NCBI GenBank assembly: GCA_964016885.1
Contig: OZ024742.1
Span: 75,330,001-75,394,000 of the forward strand
From: Eledone cirrhosa
Lineage: Eukaryota
Direction: 5' to 3'
Length of the DNA stretch: 64,000 nt
Shown: positions 31,166 to 41,600 of the stretch, in pieces
How the letters are laid out: every line of letters starts with the position of its first letter
Position numbering within the stretch: the stretch's first letter is position 1
The notes under the pieces: model-generated
The model's input: the letters and a program-made list of their open reading frames with translations, nothing else
What the model was told of the DNA's origin: nothing
Database searches by the model: none
Position numbers and translations under genes: made by a program

Positions 31166-31331
31166 TATAAAAGTTGAATAAAAGATAATTTATTTCAATC
31201 ACATTATACCATAAATCATCTCAATGTACTATGCAGGCTAAAATCCTTATTTTGTAGAGCATTATTTATTCAAAATATTTTTTAGGAACACTACTCATAT
31301 ATATATAAATATCACGAACGCAGCGTCAAAT

Positions 31332-31386
<55 letters not shown>

Positions 31387-31485
31387 GTGGTGGAACACTC
31401 AGTCCAAGGGACGAGTTAGGTAGAAGTGGTTACACAACAGTTAGTTCACCATATCGGTATAGTGAACTAACTGTTGTGTAACCAC

Positions 31486-31490
<5 letters not shown>
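31387..31490 (-). repeat. 104-bp module A: 70-nt hairpin (33-bp stem, 4-nt loop) plus 34-nt tail, between (TA)n tracts; left inverted copy
   Basis: TAGAAGTGGTTACACAACAGTTAGTTCACCATA-TCGG-TATAGTGAACTAACTGTTGTGTAACCACTTCTA at 31421-31490 (1 mismatch). The module is the reverse complement of 37011-37114. Confidence 0.92.
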
Positions 31491-31556
<66 letters not shown>

Positions 31557-31750
31557 GATAAATCTACCAAAAGTTTACGGTAGTGTCCAATCCGTATGAA
31601 GAACTCAATGTAATCCGGATATCATGGAAAGAAGAGATGCATTCAAAAATCACTTTCGGTGAAAGATAAACGGAATACAGAGTCAAGATAAAATATTTAA
31701 AAAATAATGAATAAAACAAAGAAACAGTTCCTTATATTAAACAAAAAATT

Positions 31751-31893
31751 TTCATTATTTTACGATCGTTTCTAGGACATATATGTGTTAGAATTGGCAT
31801 GCATATTCAAAAGATCTATGTACAAAATTATACAAACTATCAAGGAGAATATACATACCATCACATATATATGCTGTCTTCAGAAATAATGAA
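31751..31893 (-). ncRNA. Type I hammerhead ribozyme motif (left arm of B)
   Basis: Reverse complement of 32551-32693. Confidence 0.75.
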
Positions 31894-32550
31894 GTATATT
31901 TATTGATAATAACAACAATTCAAAATTACAGGTCTGTTTGGGAACAGATTTTAAATAGACCAATGAAATACATAAAATTCATCAAGAAAATACAGTTAGG
32001 TGTGTGTATATATGTAAGTAAATTCGTTCACAGATATGCATAAAATTGTATGTTCATATGCATACGCATGTCGAAAAAGTGTATGTAAATATAAAATACA
32101 TGCATACACACACACTCACATATACATAAACACACACATACACATACGAACACACATATACACACACGCACACACACACATACGTATATATTATTATTAT
32201 AACTATATGGATATTGAGGCGCTCACATAAACACGCCCAACACACTTACATTCATATGCAGAATTAAAGGAGGTAAGCGAGTAAGTAATTAAAGGAGAGT
32301 GTCAAACTCGGCATATTTATAAAAATGTATCTATAAAGTTAGAAATAAAAATTTTTTACATACACTTTTTCGACATGCGTATGCATATGAACGTACAATT
32401 TTATGCATATCTGTGAACGAATTTACTTACATATATACACACACCTAACTGTATTTTCTTGATGAATTTTATGTATTTCATTGGTCTATTTAAAATCTGT
32501 TCCCAAACAGACCTGTAATTTTGAATTGTTGTTATTATCAATAAATATAC

Positions 32551-32693
32551 TTCATTATTTCTGAAGACAGCATATATATGTGATGGTATGTATATTCTCC
32601 TTGATAGTTTGTATAATTTTGTACATAGATCTTTTGAATATGCATGCCAATTCTAACACATATATGTCCTAGAAACGATCGTAAAATAATGAA
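32551..32693 (+). ncRNA. Type I hammerhead ribozyme motif (right arm of B)
   Basis: Stem I TTCATTATTT/AAATAATGAA (10 bp, perfect). Core CTGAAGA at 32561-32567. Stem II CAGCATATATATGTG/CACATATATGTCCTA with a long loop. GAAA at 32672-32675, palindromic stem/loop III ACGATCGT, and a GUA cleavage triplet ending at 32683. Confidence 0.78.
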
Positions 32694-32747
32694 CTTTTTT
32701 TGTTTAATATAAGGAACTGTTTCTTTGTTTTATTCATTATTTTTTAA

Positions 32748-32786
<39 letters not shown>

Positions 32787-32945
32787 AGGAGGTTATAGTT
32801 CACTTGAAGCATTGTGTAATGAGGTATAAACGTTTGTATATGTATAATAAAGCCAAAACAATGCAGGTATGGACATAGAATAAAGAATGCAAATGCAAAA
32901 GATATTGTTGACAATTAGTCTTTTACCTTAGATTTATTTAAATGT

Positions 32946-32980
32946 CCTTAATTTTCGAGATAATATCTCTTCTTCGGAGG
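32946..32980 (-). ncRNA. Minimal hammerhead-like motif in the PLE 3' UTR (inverted arm)
   Basis: Minus strand reads CCT-CCGAAGA-A-GAGAT/ATT/ATCTC-GAAA-ATTA-AGG: U4>C core variant, 3-bp stem I, AATT palindrome at stem III. Confidence 0.5.
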
Positions 32981-33370
32981 GAAGTAAAGCGGTTAAACCA
33001 GTGTTCTAAATAGCTTGCCAAGTCATGCTGACAGGAAATGGTATAGAGTATCTGTTCTATCTCTAATGTCAAAGAGTTAAGGTTAGGTGGATAAAGAGTA
33101 GTCTCCCTTTAAAAGTTTTTTTGTACATGCCTGTTTAAGTGTGTGGGAGAATGCATGAAGGTGTAAGTATGTGAGTGAGTGTGTGTAAGTGTGAGCAGAT
33201 ATGTCTATACGTAAATGTGGAGGATAGATGTTATCTCGTGTTAGAACTGGTCTTTGTGTGTGTATGTGTGTGTGTGGGAGAGAATAAGTGGAGGTGTAAG
33301 CGTGTGTGTGTGCGTGTGTGTGTGCGTGTGTGTGTGGGGTGTGTGTGTAAATATGGGGCTAGAAGCTCTA

Positions 33371-34407
33371 TCAAGTTATAAATTGGGTGTTGAGTTCTAG
33401 TCTATTATTGATTGGTGGTTGTCTTTTGTCTATAATTAGAGCTTCCTTAATTCTAAGATTGCCGAGGTTTCTTTCCTTAGTTTCTATCCTAACTGTTATG
33501 ATTTTGTCGGTGTTTTTGCATTTAACTAGGTGTTTCTTAAATGAAGAAGCGTTAGTATTGAGGTGTTCTTTTATTCTTATGTGGAGTGCTCTGGTGGTGC
33601 TACCTACGTAGAAGTTGCTGCATTTGTCACACTCTAGTCTGTATACGACGTAAGCCTGGTGGCATAGGTCTGTGTCGTTGATGGGGCAGTTGGCTAGCCT
33701 GCAGCAGTTGTCATGTCTGGTGGAGTGTCTTTTGGTTAGCTGTCCTCGTAGAGAAGGACCTGAGTGGGCCAGTTGGATATCTAGTCCCTCTCGTCTGATA
33801 GCTCTGCGGATCGCTGTTGTTGTTTCGTCACTGAAGTGTGGGAGCTTCATGAAGCAAGTGTTAGTGCCTCGGGTGTGGTGTCCTCTGTTCTTTCTGGCAC
33901 GGTTTGTGGTGGATGTCGTGTATCCGTTCAGTTTGAGTACTTCCAGGAAATGTGTGGTGTGTGTGTCTCGGTCTGTAGCGTCGGTGCATTTGTTCCGGAT
34001 ACGTGTTAGTTCGTTCCTTATGTATCCGAACTTAGCGCCGGCTGGGAGGGCCGATCTGAAATGTACGAACAGGTCCCTGCTGGCGGCTTTTTTATAGAAG
34101 CAGGTGTGGATGTTGCCTTCTTCTGTTACCCTGAGTTGGAAGTCCAGTAGGGATAGGGATCCGCGGTATTCGGGGTGTTCCATGCTGAACTTTATACTGG
34201 CGTCCATGCTGGAGAATGTTGTGTATATTTTATCTGCCTCCTCACGGGATGATGTAAGGATGAGTATGTCATCTACATATCGGGTGAAGAAGGTATGGGA
34301 ATGGCAGGTGTTGAGGGCTCGGCATTCTAGCTGGTTCATATAGGTGATGGCCAGCAGGCCCGATACGCTGGATCCCATGGGTAATCTTGTTGTCTGTCTG
34401 TATGTGT
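33371..34407 (-). pseudogene. PLE polyprotein, C-terminal half (RT catalytic motif through GIY-YIG endonuclease), inverted arm
   Basis: Open frame with intact YVDD and the full C-terminus ...NNRLELNTQFIT*. The N-terminal RT is missing, and the ATG at 34450 lies across the inversion junction. Confidence 0.88.
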
Positions 34408-36378
34408 TCATATTGAAACAGAGACTGGACGACAAATTATGGCTCGACATAGAAACGAATTTCTGTCGGGCTGCCTACCAACTAAAATGGATATCGATTC
34501 TCGGCAACAACACAACGGAATCTAACAAACCCAGATTCCCGATATACCAACTGGATCGCCCACTCTGTACACCGCCTGCCAACTGCGAGCTTGAAGAAAA
34601 ACTCTCGACGCTAAAACATTCCGTATTTAACATCTTACGGAAACAGAAGAAAATAGCCCCAAACCTCTCCAGGAAACAACAACTCGCCCTGAAGAACCAA
34701 CGGAATAGGGAACTTATATACTTACCATCCGACAAAGGTAAAGAGTTTTGCGTCATCTCTCAAGCCACATACAACAACCTAGCCTCTGAACACCTAAGCG
34801 ACAATGAATTATATACAGAGATCCCTGACATGACTGCAGCCCAGATCGAAAAACAGACCAACTCCATCTGGTTCGATATCTGTAGGAGAAGACAACTCCC
34901 AAATAAAGTTAAGCTCAACTACACCACTAGAAATAGCAGACTGCCCACTTTGTACCACCTCATCAAGACCCACAATAATAGTACTAAGACGCAAATAAGA
35001 CCCATCGTCTCTAGCATAGAAGGACCCCTATACAACATTTCCTGGCTCCTCTCCCAGGTCCTCAAGCCTCTACTCTCCACCTTTCCCGGGCATGTCAGTA
35101 GCTCCGACGAAGTCATACGTAGACTACAGCAACTCCAGCCAGAACAACTTAAACTAAATAGATACGCCTTTAGCCTCAACGTTGTCTCCCTCTACTCTAC
35201 CGTCCCCGCTCATCCAGCTGTCGATTTATTGACGGACTGCGTGGTCTCAGAGGTCATCCACTGCTACGGCCTCCATCCGACGGACATACACCAGCTTTTG
35301 TCCTTCACAGTAGACAACACGTACTTCACCTTCCACCACCACACATACAGAGAAACAACAGGATTACCCATGGGATCCAGCGTATCGGGCCTGCTGGACA
35401 TCACCTATATGAACCAGCTAGAATACCGAGCCCTCAACACCTACCATTCCCATACCTTCTTCACCCGATATGTATTTGACATACTCATCCTTACATCATC
35501 CCGTGAGGAGGCATATAAAATATACACGACATTCTCCAGTATGGACGCCAGTATAAAGTTCAGCATGAAACACCCCGATGACCGCGGATCCCTATCCCTA
35601 CTGGACTTCAAACTCAGGGTAACAGAGGAAGGCAACATCCACACCTGCTTCTATAAAAAAGCCGCCAGCAGGGACCTGTTCGTACATTTCAGATCGGCCC
35701 TCCCAGCCGGCGCTAAGTTCGGATACATAAGGAACGAACTAACACGTATCCGGAACAAATGCAACGACGCTAGAGACCGAGACACACACGCCACACATTT
35801 CCTGGAAGTACTCAAACTGAACGGATACACGACATCCACCACAAACCGTGCCAGGAAGAACAGAGGACACCACACCCGAGGCACTAACACTTGCTTCATG
35901 AAGCTCCCACACTTCAGTGACGAAACAACAACAGCCATCCGCAGAGCTATCAGACGAGAGGGACTAGATATCCAACTGGCCCACTCAGGTCCTTCTCTTC
36001 GAGGACAGCTAACCAAAAGACACTCCACCAGACATGACAACTGCTGCAGGCTAGCCAACTGCCCCATCAACGACACAGACCTATGCCACCAGGCTTACGT
36101 CGTATACAGACTAGAGTGTGACAAATGCAGCAACTTCTACGTAGGTAGCACCACCAGACCACTCCACACAAGAATAAAAGAACACCGCAATACTAACGCT
36201 TCCTCATTTAAGAAACAACCTAGTTAAATGCAAAAACACCGACAAAACCATAACAGTTAGGATAGAAACTAAGGAAAGAAATCTCGGCAATCTTAGAATT
36301 AAGGAAGCTCTAATTATAGACAAAACACAACCACCAATCAATAATAGACTAGAACTCAACACCCAATTTATAACTTGA
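34408..36378 (+). pseudogene. PLE polyprotein (RT + GIY-YIG), 5'-truncated and damaged
   Basis: Corresponds to ORF 34344-36227. The catalytic YVDD is mutated to YVFD. A +1 frameshift near 36218 (KKQPS* versus KKHLVKC in the other arm) precedes the original TGA at 36376-36378. Confidence 0.88.
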
Positions 36379-36779
36379 TAGAGCTTCTAGCACCATATTC
36401 ACACACACTCCACACACACACACGCACACACACACGCACACGCACACACACACACACGCTTACACCTCCACTTATTCACTCTCACACACACATACACATT
36501 CACAGACCAGTTCTAACACGCGATAATATCTATCCCCCACATTTACGTATAGACATATCTTCTCACACTCACACACACACACTCACATACTTACATCTTC
36601 ATGCATTCTCCCCCACACTTAAACAGGCATGTACAAAAAAACCCTTTTAAAGGGAGACTATTCTTTATCCACCTAACCTTAACTCTTTGACATTAGAGAT
36701 AGAACAGATACTCTATACCAATTTCCTGTCAGCACTACTTGGCAACCTATTTAGAACACTGGTTTAACCGCTTTACCTC

Positions 36780-36814
36780 CCTCCGTAGAAAAGATATTAT
36801 CTCGAAAATTAAGG
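36780..36814 (+). ncRNA. Minimal hammerhead-like motif in the PLE 3' UTR (forward arm, more decayed)
   Basis: CCT-CCGTAGA-A-AAGAT/ATT/ATCTC-GAAA-ATTA-AGG, with two changes relative to the other arm. Confidence 0.4.
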
Positions 36815-36973
36815 ACATTTAAATAAATCTAAGGTAAAAGACTAATTGCCAACAATATCTTTTGCATTTGCATTCTTTATTCTATGTCCATACCTGCATT
36901 GTTTTCGCTTTATTATACATATACAAACGTTTATAACTCATTACACAATGCTTCAAGTGAACTATAACCTCCT

Positions 36974-37010
<37 letters not shown>

Positions 37011-37015
<5 letters not shown>

Positions 37016-37111
37016 GTGGTTACACAACAGTTAGTTCACCATACCGATATGGTGAACTAACTGTTGTATAACCACTTCTACCTAACTCGTCCCTTGGACT
37101 GAGTGTTCCAC

Positions 37112-37114
<3 letters not shown>
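37011..37114 (+). repeat. 104-bp module A': hairpin plus 34-nt tail between (TA)n tracts; right copy
   Basis: Hairpin at 37011-37080 with loop CCGA, followed by the tail CCTAACTCGTCCCTTGGACTGAGTGTTCCACCAC. Confidence 0.92.
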
Positions 37115-37164
<50 letters not shown>

Positions 37165-38625: not shown

Positions 38626-41600
38626 ATGTCGAACCTAAACAGTTCGAATAACGGTGAAGTGGAGACTAGAATGTCATGTGACAGACTCTCACCCAACAGG
38701 TGCTCCCTGGCTCAGCAGCAGGGACTTGGCTGTCAACCAAATACTGCTGGTGTCGGAGGAAGAAGAAGAAGGAAAGGGACCAGAACCAACTGGACGAAAG
38801 AATTGAATAGAACTATTATGCAATGTTACCTGAACAGTAACCCCAAGGAGAAAGGCTATAGGAAACGGATGCATAACATCTGGAACGAGATTGGTCTATT
38901 TAAATTAGATGAACAAAAAGTGGCAAGGCAGGCTCGGGTAATAAGAACTAATGGGTGGATAAGCGAGCTGGAACTGGAGGAAATGAGCAGAGAGATTAGC
39001 TTGGAAATGGAGAGTGGAGTATGCCAGGCAGACGAGCCAGGGGGAAATGAAGGTGAAGAGGTCGAGACAACGGAGGAACGATCCGAAGCAGACAATGATC
39101 TGAATGCTGAAATAAATAATACCTGGAACAGAGATACGGCCACTGAGGAGATGAATGCTGACGGGCTAGGACAAGATTTGGTTGATATCCTAAACTTAGT
39201 GGTAGATGAATTGAACAATGATAGTGGGAAACCTATGAACCTAAGATTTGTAGACAGGAAAAAGTTAAAAGAAACAACAGCTAAGGTAAACAAAGTCATC
39301 CCATACCTTGAGGCGAGGAGCCTTCACCAGTGCAACAATATCCTCAAAGCAACAGCAAATACGGTGAGGAAATTACTTGGTATAAAAGCGAGAGGAAACA
39401 ACAAACAAGAAAGATCAGAGCCTTGGTGGAAGAAACGACTGAGTGGTCCAATCAGGGAAATGAGAAATGACATTGGAAAGCTTGAGTCCCTACTGAATGG
39501 GACACTAAAAAACATAGACACTAAAAATAGACTGGAAATAAAGTACAAAACTAGGAGGAAAAAGCTAAATGTTATCATAGAGCAACTAAAGCAACGCATT
39601 GTAGCAAAGAGTGCAAAAATCAGGCGATACGAGAACAGAGTCAGTCAGTATAGACAGAACCGCATGTTTGACAACAACCAGAAGATGCTGTTTGGACAGC
39701 TTGAAGGGAAAGAAAGAGGCAACGACTTGATCCCTGAGGCGGAACACACAAAAACATTCTGGAGAGGAATATGGGAGCAGGATGTTAAACATAATGACCA
39801 GGCAGTGTGGATTGAGACAATACAGAAGGAGATTAGTGAACAGGCACACCAACAAACTGATTTGAGTATCACAGTTGAAGCTCTTAAGGGGCAGGCCAAA
39901 AAACTAACCAACTGGAGATCACCAGGTCCAGATGGTGTGCAGGGGTATTGGATTAAAAATATAACATCCCTCCACCCGAAACTGACAACCATGTTCAATG
40001 ACTGCTTGATGTCAGATGAGGTACCAGAGTTGTTGACAAAAGGTACCACAGTTCTGGTAATGAAAGACCGAATCAAGGGTAATGATGTTACCAACTATAG
40101 ACCTATCACATGTCTGTCCGTAATGTGGAAACTGTTGACAAGCATTATGTCTGAGGAAATCTACCATCACCTCCACACAAACAACTTGTTACCGGACGAA
40201 CAGAAAGGATGCCGAAAGAAGTCCCGTAGTACAAAAGACCAGTTACTTATTGATAAGATGGTAATGAGGAATTGCAAGAGGAGACACACTGGTCTTGCCA
40301 TGAGATGGATAGACTACAAAAAGGCATTTGACATGGTGCCTCATTCTTGGATCACCAAAAGCCTGGAGATCTTCAGGGTGGCAGATAACATTAGACAGCT
40401 GTTGGGCAAAAGTATGAAGTCCTGGGAAACAGAGTTAACATCAGCTGGAGAATCCTTGGGAAGCGTGAAGATCAAGAGAGGTATCTTCCAGGGAGATAGT
40501 CTGTCCTCTCTGTTGTTTGTCCTTGCCCTGATGCGCCTGACCAGTATACTGCGAAAAGTGAGAGCAGGATACAGGTTGGGAAAGGGAGGGCTTACCATCA
40601 ATCACCTCCTCTTCATGGACGATCTTAAGCTCTTCGGGAAGAGTGAGAAGTAGTTGGATGTGCTTATTGACACTGTCCGTATTTTCAGCAATGATATATG
40701 TATACAATTTGGTATTAGTAAGTGTGGAGTCCTTGTGATGAAGAGGGGTAAATTGAGCAGAAGTAATGGAATCCAGGTACCAACAGGTGACATGATAAAG
40801 GAAATTGACACTGAAGAAGGATACAAGTATTTGGGTGTTCTAGGGGATGATGACATCAAGAACAAAAAAATGAAGGAATTGTTAAGAACTGAATATATTC
40901 GGAGAGTAAGGAGCGTATTAAAGTCACATCTGAACAGTAGGAATGCCATAAGTGCAGTAAATTCCCGAGCTGTGTCTATTATTAGGTACAGTGCGGGAAT
41001 TCTGAAATGGAATGTTTCTGAACAAAAAGAAATGGATAGGAAGACTAGGAAGTTATTGACTATCTACAACATGTTCCACAAGAGGAGTGATGTCGATAGA
41101 CTCTACTTAAGGAGATCTGAAGGTGGAAGAATTCTTATCATCATAGAAGACTGTGTTCAGATGGAGAAAAACAACCTACACAAATACGTGACTGATAATA
41201 GGGAGCCAATGCTCAGAATTATACTGAAGGAGAGGACAATAGACCAGGGGATGTTCAAGGAGGAAATAACAGCAAGGAGAAAGAGCAATCTTCATGAAAA
41301 ATCCCTTCATAGTACCTTCTTTGATAAAACTGAATTTAGAGATCCACAGACATGGAACTGGTTGAAAAGAGGAAACCTTATAAAGGCTACAGAAGGAAAG
41401 CTAATGGCTGCCAAAGAGCAGGCCCTCAAAACGAAGTGGCTGAAACACCATATTTACAAGGAGGAGGCTATCCCACTGTGTAGGATATGTGGAGAGAGAG
41501 AGGAGACAGTGGCTCACATTGTATCCGAGTATAAACACCTAGCCCAGACTCACTATAAGGGCTGGAGACATGATGTGATAGGCAGGGTCATCCACTGGCA

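Follow-up and report, generated by a model that had tools for sequence, protein, structure and literature searches.

Stacked head-to-head insertions of three coding Penelope-like element families in one TA repeat of Eledone cirrhosa and a probable fold-back origin of their outer palindrome

How do three inverted-arm elements of very different size come to lie within one TA repeat, and why is DNA next to the largest of them mirrored on its other side? The question is raised by a locus in a 64,000-nucleotide stretch of Eledone cirrhosa DNA (the window; G000:C3:75,330,001-75,394,000 of a 3.0-gigabase assembly; positions given without a locus name are in window numbering), in which a large Penelope-like element (PLE) with two head-to-head arms is flanked by two copies of a small hairpin, A and A', and accompanied by a hairpin of intermediate size, B. 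Our data suggest a stack of 5'-truncated head-to-head insertions from three coding PLE families, i.e. family 1 (the large PLE), family 2 (B) and family 3 (A), in one TA repeat, the outer palindrome having arisen by DNA-templated fold-back synthesis that overran the end of the large element into A' during its insertion. We regard this account as probable, with reservations that are set out below.

The initial annotation had described three inverted-arm elements nested in (TA)n, and both the order, (TA)n, A, (TA)n, B, (TA)n, inverted PLE arm, long PLE arm, (TA)n, A', (TA)n, and the coordinates hold, with arms of 33 bp in A, 402 bp in B and about 1,630 bp in the PLE and every end lying on (TA)n. 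In the following lines, 3' untranslated region (UTR), open reading frame (ORF), reverse transcriptase (RT) and pseudo-long terminal repeat (pLTR) are abbreviated as indicated:

31330..31384, no strand: outer left (TA)n, end of the mirrored arm; the unique flanks further out are unmirrored
31387..31490, minus: A, mirror copy of A'; head-to-head 3' ends of family 3 (a Hydra-type PLE), tail with a 30-nt deletion
31491..31552, no strand: (TA)n, piece of the left tract, split by B
31553..31687, minus: tail of B, 135 nt, equal to the start of the family-2 5' UTR; runs into the ORF in L132, L133 and L134
31688..32354, minus: long arm of B, family-2 3' UTR/pLTR, 5'-truncated, without a microsatellite of about 100 nt present in other copies
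32355..32756, plus: short inverted arm of B, stops at the family-2 pLTR end
32551..32693, plus: type I hammerhead motif in B, core 32561-32567, predicted cut after 32683; mirror at 31751-31893
32757..32784, no strand: (TA)n between B and the PLE short arm
32785..34407, minus: short arm of the family-1 PLE, with the C-terminal half of the RT, GIY-YIG and 3' UTR; atypical 40-nt tail at 32785-32824
34406..36975, plus: long arm of the family-1 PLE, first ~620 nt of the 3,127-bp unit missing; tail at 36936-36975
36976..37010, no strand: (TA)n, presumably the original target tract
37011..37114, plus: A', family-3 hairpin with deleted tail, probably the older resident of the target site
37115..37160, no strand: outer right (TA)n

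The arms of A (31387-31490) differ by one mismatch and one of them carries 34 extra nt, while B (31553-32756) has 3 mismatches between its arms, 265 nt separating them and 135 extra nt on one arm. The PLE arms, overlapping by 2 nt at their head-to-head junction, differ in 59 of 1,624 aligned columns (3.6%), with 5 gap events; for A and A' the identity is 98% across 104 nt. Taking out B leaves a palindrome of PLE 3' half, TA and A, as proposed earlier and confirmed by the inverted-repeat pairs; the mirror stops within the outer TA tracts, and the unique flanks do not match each other. The one-arm extras noted before in A and B stand, the 34 nt of A representing a longer tail with a deletion, and a 40-nt tail present on both arms of the PLE had been overlooked.

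Both small layers have coding parents. A genome search with B gave 2,432 candidates, 40 of which were scored; its 135-nt tail continues into an RT frame in L049, L059 and L060, and in L132 B is followed by an ORF ending in GIY-YIG, a long UTR and B again up to the pLTR end. With B recurring after the GIY-YIG end in L132 and L133, the family-2 unit measures 5.2-5.5 kb. The search with A gave 1,933 candidates, the best 30 of which were inspected by eye: the tail is 64 nt long in 27 of these 30, identifying the 34 nt of the window as the product of a 30-nt deletion, the fold point varies among them, and 29 of 30 have a microsatellite at both ends although the query contained no TA. The family-3 tail matched at 84 places without pure TA after it; RT frames lie downstream of A plus tail in all eight of the loci translated, and in L145 A plus tail is placed between an upstream ORF ending in GIY-YIG and the start of the next ORF. 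As B with its tail runs into an RT and GIY-YIG frame and recurs after it, and judging A by the same sequence relations, B is a 5'-truncated two-armed insertion of a second coding PLE family and A the 5'-truncated end of a third. A consists of the last 33 nt of the family-3 pLTR, folded just downstream of the family-3 hammerhead and too short to retain it. The proteins of families 2 and 3 share 39% identity; BLASTP of either against family 1 gave no significant match, and BLASTN among the 3' ends of the three families gave none.

The PLE origin of all three layers proposed by the initial annotation is thus borne out, each belonging to a family with RT and GIY-YIG, as is the targeting of TA, with 743 exact tail-plus-TA ends genome-wide for family 2 and 2,473 for family 3 (TA being part of the pattern). 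Its proposal of a single system with coding, ribozyme-only and minimal members fails, A and B being ends of two other coding families. Microsatellite-targeting miniature inverted-repeat transposable elements are also short non-coding repeats; the initial annotation was right to set them aside, as fold points and lengths of A and B vary per copy and their ends, flanked by TA, are asymmetric, a target duplication being unreadable inside TA. The hammerhead it had suggested in B is supported as a putative one by a type I motif read by eye in each arm, with a helix II of about 100 nt and a palindromic helix III, and by a predicted fold showing helix I and the long helix II. An Rfam search of the window returned no ribozyme match, only low-score microRNA-like hairpins, and a regular-expression hammerhead scan gave no matches, so that motifs were read by eye; a canonical core is visible in this way in families 2 and 3.

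In family 1, the Pfam domain RVT_1 is matched in both window arms and GIY-YIG scores over the cut-off in the left arm and under it in the right (long) arm, which has an altered RT catalytic motif and a frameshift in the nuclease. At least 149 other family-1 protein matches show 90-93% identity (150 listed including the window's own, from 13,384 candidates). A natural tandem in L111 defines a unit of 3,127 bp with a single open frame of 864 amino acids (RT plus C-terminal GIY-YIG), and the 40 nt past the pLTR end are the start of the next tandem unit, i.e. the tail. The hammerhead core is of the U4C type in most copies and decayed in the right window copy. Copies in L111-L112, L115-L116, L117 and L118 contain open frames of about 900 codons and are 99.4-100% identical to the L111 unit; such near-identity across loci is the mark of very recent activity. 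A homologue search returned no named PLE.

Motifs place family 1 as Nematis-like: its translations contain GxKF, DKG, CCHH, in which the two cysteines lie between GIY and YIG, and a short linker of three cysteines that resembles the PNL2_SM row of Fig. S2 in PMC8557442, whereas the full Nematis linker CX2-5CxxC occurs in just 2 of 53 homologues scored. Families 2 and 3, taken as Neptune at first, are assigned to the Hydra clade by the published motif list (Craig 2021, PMC8557442). They have DKT in place of DKG, the RW-R motif as RWR and a CxCX5C linker, and instead of CCHH they have CxxC and CxH around E and N (L132, L136, L137, L234). Likeness to the Hydra clade as described there extends over DKT, CxCX5C, the lack of CCHH, CxxC/CxH, (TA)n insertion and hammerheads, and RT3-RT4 look similar by eye to the Hydra rows of Fig. 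S1; they differ in having RWR rather than RWK, and the family-2 unit of 5.2-5.5 kb exceeds the 'generally <3 kb' of Hydra elements, a tendency and not a criterion.

Two further frames, one at 5884-9435 of L137 on the plus strand with PLE-like RT and GIY-YIG and an asparagine-rich insert, the other at 238-880 of L139 on the minus strand with another CxCX5C-like nuclease end, probably belong to more PLE families in this genome.

All three families produce partial tandems, an inverted 5'-truncated copy and a tail at one end (40 nt in family 1, 135 nt in family 2, 64 nt in family 3), normally on one arm only. Among 17 family-1 loci hand-picked for paired matches or long frames, the tail is on exactly one arm in all 14 two-armed loci with both outer ends seen, and the head-to-head junctions are overlaps or gaps of mostly <10 nt. 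For a structure-blind sample we took 40 of the first 41 listed family-1 tail ends (691 in all; one already examined). Thirty-three of the 40 are two-armed: the inverted arm stops at the pLTR end in 26 and elsewhere in 6, and in 1 the script marked it as stopping at a tail, which turned out to be an internal tandem joint. An outer inverted tail, checked in all TA phases, was found in 0 of 40 loci, whereas the PLE of the window has two tails; the tail-end pattern itself is limited to a single TA phase and does not pick up the ends in the window, making its lack of pairs weak evidence. In family 2, 13 of the first 30 listed ends are two-armed within 1.5 kb, 9 stopping at the pLTR end, 0 at the tail and 4 elsewhere, and small family-3 hairpins are one-tailed in 189 cases and two-tailed in 7.

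Short hairpins are made by all three families including family 1, and by their sequences the three scales of the window are a size continuum within each family and not separate member types. The 5' ends of the tail arm bunch just upstream of the hammerhead in every family: 14 of 40 family-1 copies have them between -233 and -255 (core at -192), 9 of 30 family-2 copies between -335 and -342 (core at -331), and 16 of 30 family-3 copies between -128 and -165 (core at -131; two of the 16 are identical duplicates). Two more family-2 clusters, at -412 and at -614, were left uncounted, since they probably mark places where the alignment breaks between subfamilies; many family-2 joints in contigs of one public sample lie at the modal place. 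In these short copies the ribozyme is intact, which agrees with the report that a PLE protein uses mainly uncleaved RNA as its template in vitro (PMC11167929); the copies would result from run-off at the RNA 5' end. A and B of the window fall outside the modal positions; a hotspot for the tip of A at the palindromic helix III was considered and attributed to query bias, the tail-anchored sample peaking further upstream.

Of 100 sampled tail ends, five face another PLE end of these families across a TA tract within 400 nt, two of the five belonging to another family, which makes a three-family stack unsurprising. The insertions lie beside each other in TA tracts and not, as had been suggested, in each other's tails. 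The stack itself is ordinary and implies no host function; the mirrored flank is the informative rarity.

Much of this architecture is already published. Canonical PLEs with an endonuclease (PMC8557442; PMC3846280) are described with the same head-to-head arms, partial tandems, one-end tail, (TA)n targets and pLTR hammerhead; the former source gives the inverted copy, the one-sided tail of 30-40 bp, the (TA)n targets and the Hydra clade, and the latter reads head-to-head palindromes as self-priming and reports capture of host DNA. Compared with those tails of 30-40 nt, the tails of families 3 and 2 are longer, and the window differs in having both arms tailed and the flank mirrored. Opposite-strand hammerhead pairs 100-700 bp apart were traced to truncated PLEs (Cervera and de la Pena 2014, PMC4209133); B is of this type, as are the short copies at the modal positions in each of the three families, although helix II of B reaches about 100 nt and A has no hammerhead. 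Non-LTR retrozymes (10.64898/2026.07.22.740005) resemble our elements as short non-coding repeats with, in B, a hammerhead, but are described as non-coding head-to-tail hammerhead units, while here the tandem units hold ORFs, have no fixed length and are contiguous with coding parents. Among titles and abstract openings, with thin coverage of subscription journals, none was found that deals with mirrored flanks around a PLE or with repetition of tail units. The origin of the inverted arm and the one-sided tail is presented as an open question in PMC8557442, and in PMC11167929, where the tail is set by two sites of RT initiation and extension takes place on both strands, the later steps are given as unvalidated.

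What made the outer mirror? Both large arms carry the PLE tail, a TA tract and a copy of A with the same private deletion. The hybrid 30-nt tail deletion occurs only in the window among 85 family-3 loci checked (it was A' that the search expression hit, and the deletion is identical in A), and the tip of A/A' has no exact match elsewhere among the 100 small hairpins listed, a few being one base off; by these shared features A and A' derive from one insertion. With the CA tract masked and 56 segments of near copies as reference, the arm variants comprise 29 sites private to the right arm, 10 private to the left and 8 at which both share a non-majority state, 4 of these being common polymorphisms and 4 occurring in 0-1 other copies. 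Mismatches between the PLE arms are evenly spread with no outward fall in divergence, and A and A' differ by about 2%, similar to the 2.8% of the PLE arms. Even divergence and few shared private variants point to a duplication about as old as the insertion; A would thus be flanking DNA that was mirrored at about that time, likely by fold-back synthesis.

These data support a model according to which family 3 would first have left A' in a TA tract, its 30-nt tail deletion being acquired there or present on arrival. Family 1 would then have made a nick in the neighbouring TA and, starting at its tail, 2.57 kb of cDNA. The end of this cDNA may have paired with itself over 2 nt and been extended by 1.62 kb, through the tail, TA and A', before being rejoined to the other chromosome end in TA. 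Family 2 would later have inserted B into the new left TA tract. B is present only in the left arm and its own arms are closer than those of the PLE (3/402 versus 39/1395 mismatches, p=0.014), pointing to B as the latest arrival, as the initial annotation had it; close arms can also result from homogenisation.

Several observations weigh against fold-back during insertion. The right arm (35341-36975) has 29 private changes and the left (32785-34407) 10 (p=0.003), which is unexpected under simple co-insertional copying. A second two-tailed locus, of family 2 (L281-L282, G000:C1:328,465,946-328,475,902; one pair in the first 100 listed family-2 ends), carries 2.27 kb of flank in mirror image; identity is 98.9%, the flank shows about 3 substitutions in 2,000 columns, and the inner arms have diverged further. 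This suggests later repair or a very recent event, and that mirrors can arise well after insertion. Unique DNA is mirrored at none of the 7 two-tailed family-3 hairpins; in 2 of them both arms have the same private variants and the same neighbouring CT/TA tract, and 1 has a partial second tail. A family-3 pair at C1:63.69 Mb and locus L245, considered as mirrors, are independent insertions. An anole PLE protein cuts and extends both strands in vitro and has two RT start sites, which would explain the usual two-armed insertions without any fold-back (PMC11167929). Finally, among the matches listed from contigs of four runs and restriction-site-associated DNA (RAD) reads of one run, none bridges the locus or the junction at 34406. 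As the allele may be missing from these samples, this does not speak against the arrangement, support for which comes from the assembly and from internal divergence.

The most serious competitor, doubtful in our estimate yet to be reckoned with, keeps the same three families and has host repair make the mirror after insertion, a break or replication template switch at the inverted repeat re-copying the right arm, tail, TA and A' leftward. Fold-back inversions at inverted repeats are a well-studied outcome of repair, and L281-L282 looks like one. In the window, however, the arms are evenly diverged all the way from the junction to A and have only 4 of 43 locus-specific variants in common, so that the event would need to have come soon after insertion and to have spanned the whole arm. 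Separate priming of both arms from the two target strands on a read-through PLE-TA-A RNA of a donor locus, i.e. 3' transduction, would suit the extension of both strands in vitro (PMC11167929) and the reported capture of host DNA (PMC3846280), but we consider it improbable: the exact pattern tail-TA-A with a gap of 10-40 nt matches once in the genome, at this locus, revealing no donor, and according to PMC11167929 PLE RT starts inside the RNA at the tail, leaving downstream sequence normally uncopied.

That a single TA-targeting PLE system propagates dedicated non-coding members, ribozyme-only B and minimal A, through its coding element could draw on the abundance of short copies with 5' ends near the hammerhead, some of which could be re-transcribed; with A and B having their own coding parents from another clade, fold points differing from copy to copy and no sequence common to A/B and family 1, it is contradicted at this locus and deserves very little credence. 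An assembly or fold-back read artefact would fit the lack of a bridging read or contig among those listed and the otherwise unexplained asymmetry of arm mutations, but is highly unlikely on internal grounds, the arms differing by 3.6% with indels, B being in one arm only and A and A' each having a private change. Fold-back synthesis overrunning into A' hence remains our preferred origin of the palindrome.

As a tentative generalisation, which may well prove wrong, the inverted PLE arm could be made by DNA-templated fold-back synthesis, which as a rule would stop at the TA-like pLTR end but in a few percent of cases would overrun it, leaving a tail on each arm and at times a mirrored copy of host DNA; the commonest products would be short copies that end immediately upstream of a hammerhead left uncleaved, and the RT might re-copy the 30-nt tail unit in a telomerase-like fashion, seeding a satellite. 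If the overrun is real, PLEs are a direct source of inverted duplications. The rare two-tailed loci can separate DNA-templated from RNA-templated synthesis of the second arm, and the genome offers thousands of junctions and three abundant PLE families, in one of which full-length copies are nearly identical.

The family-3 tail contains a 30-nt unit between two short direct repeats, of which about 235 copies (7 kb, 94% matches) are found at the tail of one two-armed insertion (L172:7806-10000 plus L173:1-4866; G000:C4:80.4988-80.5059 Mb), and which is present 2 and 3 times at two other loci (L175; L176). RT re-alignment or DNA slippage could each have started such repeats, and repeated blocks of variants in the array suggest later expansion at the DNA level. 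Nine family-3 tail ends on one strand, spaced by about 47-60 kb at G000:C1:143.34-143.79 Mb, suggest a large tandem duplication. In the window itself, positions 3-27409 are a 29-bp satellite of about 950 copies that, by eye, looks faintly similar to the tail unit of family 3, and 38626-40653 on the plus strand encode a frame of 675 amino acids with an RT domain of non-LTR type that is unrelated to the stack.

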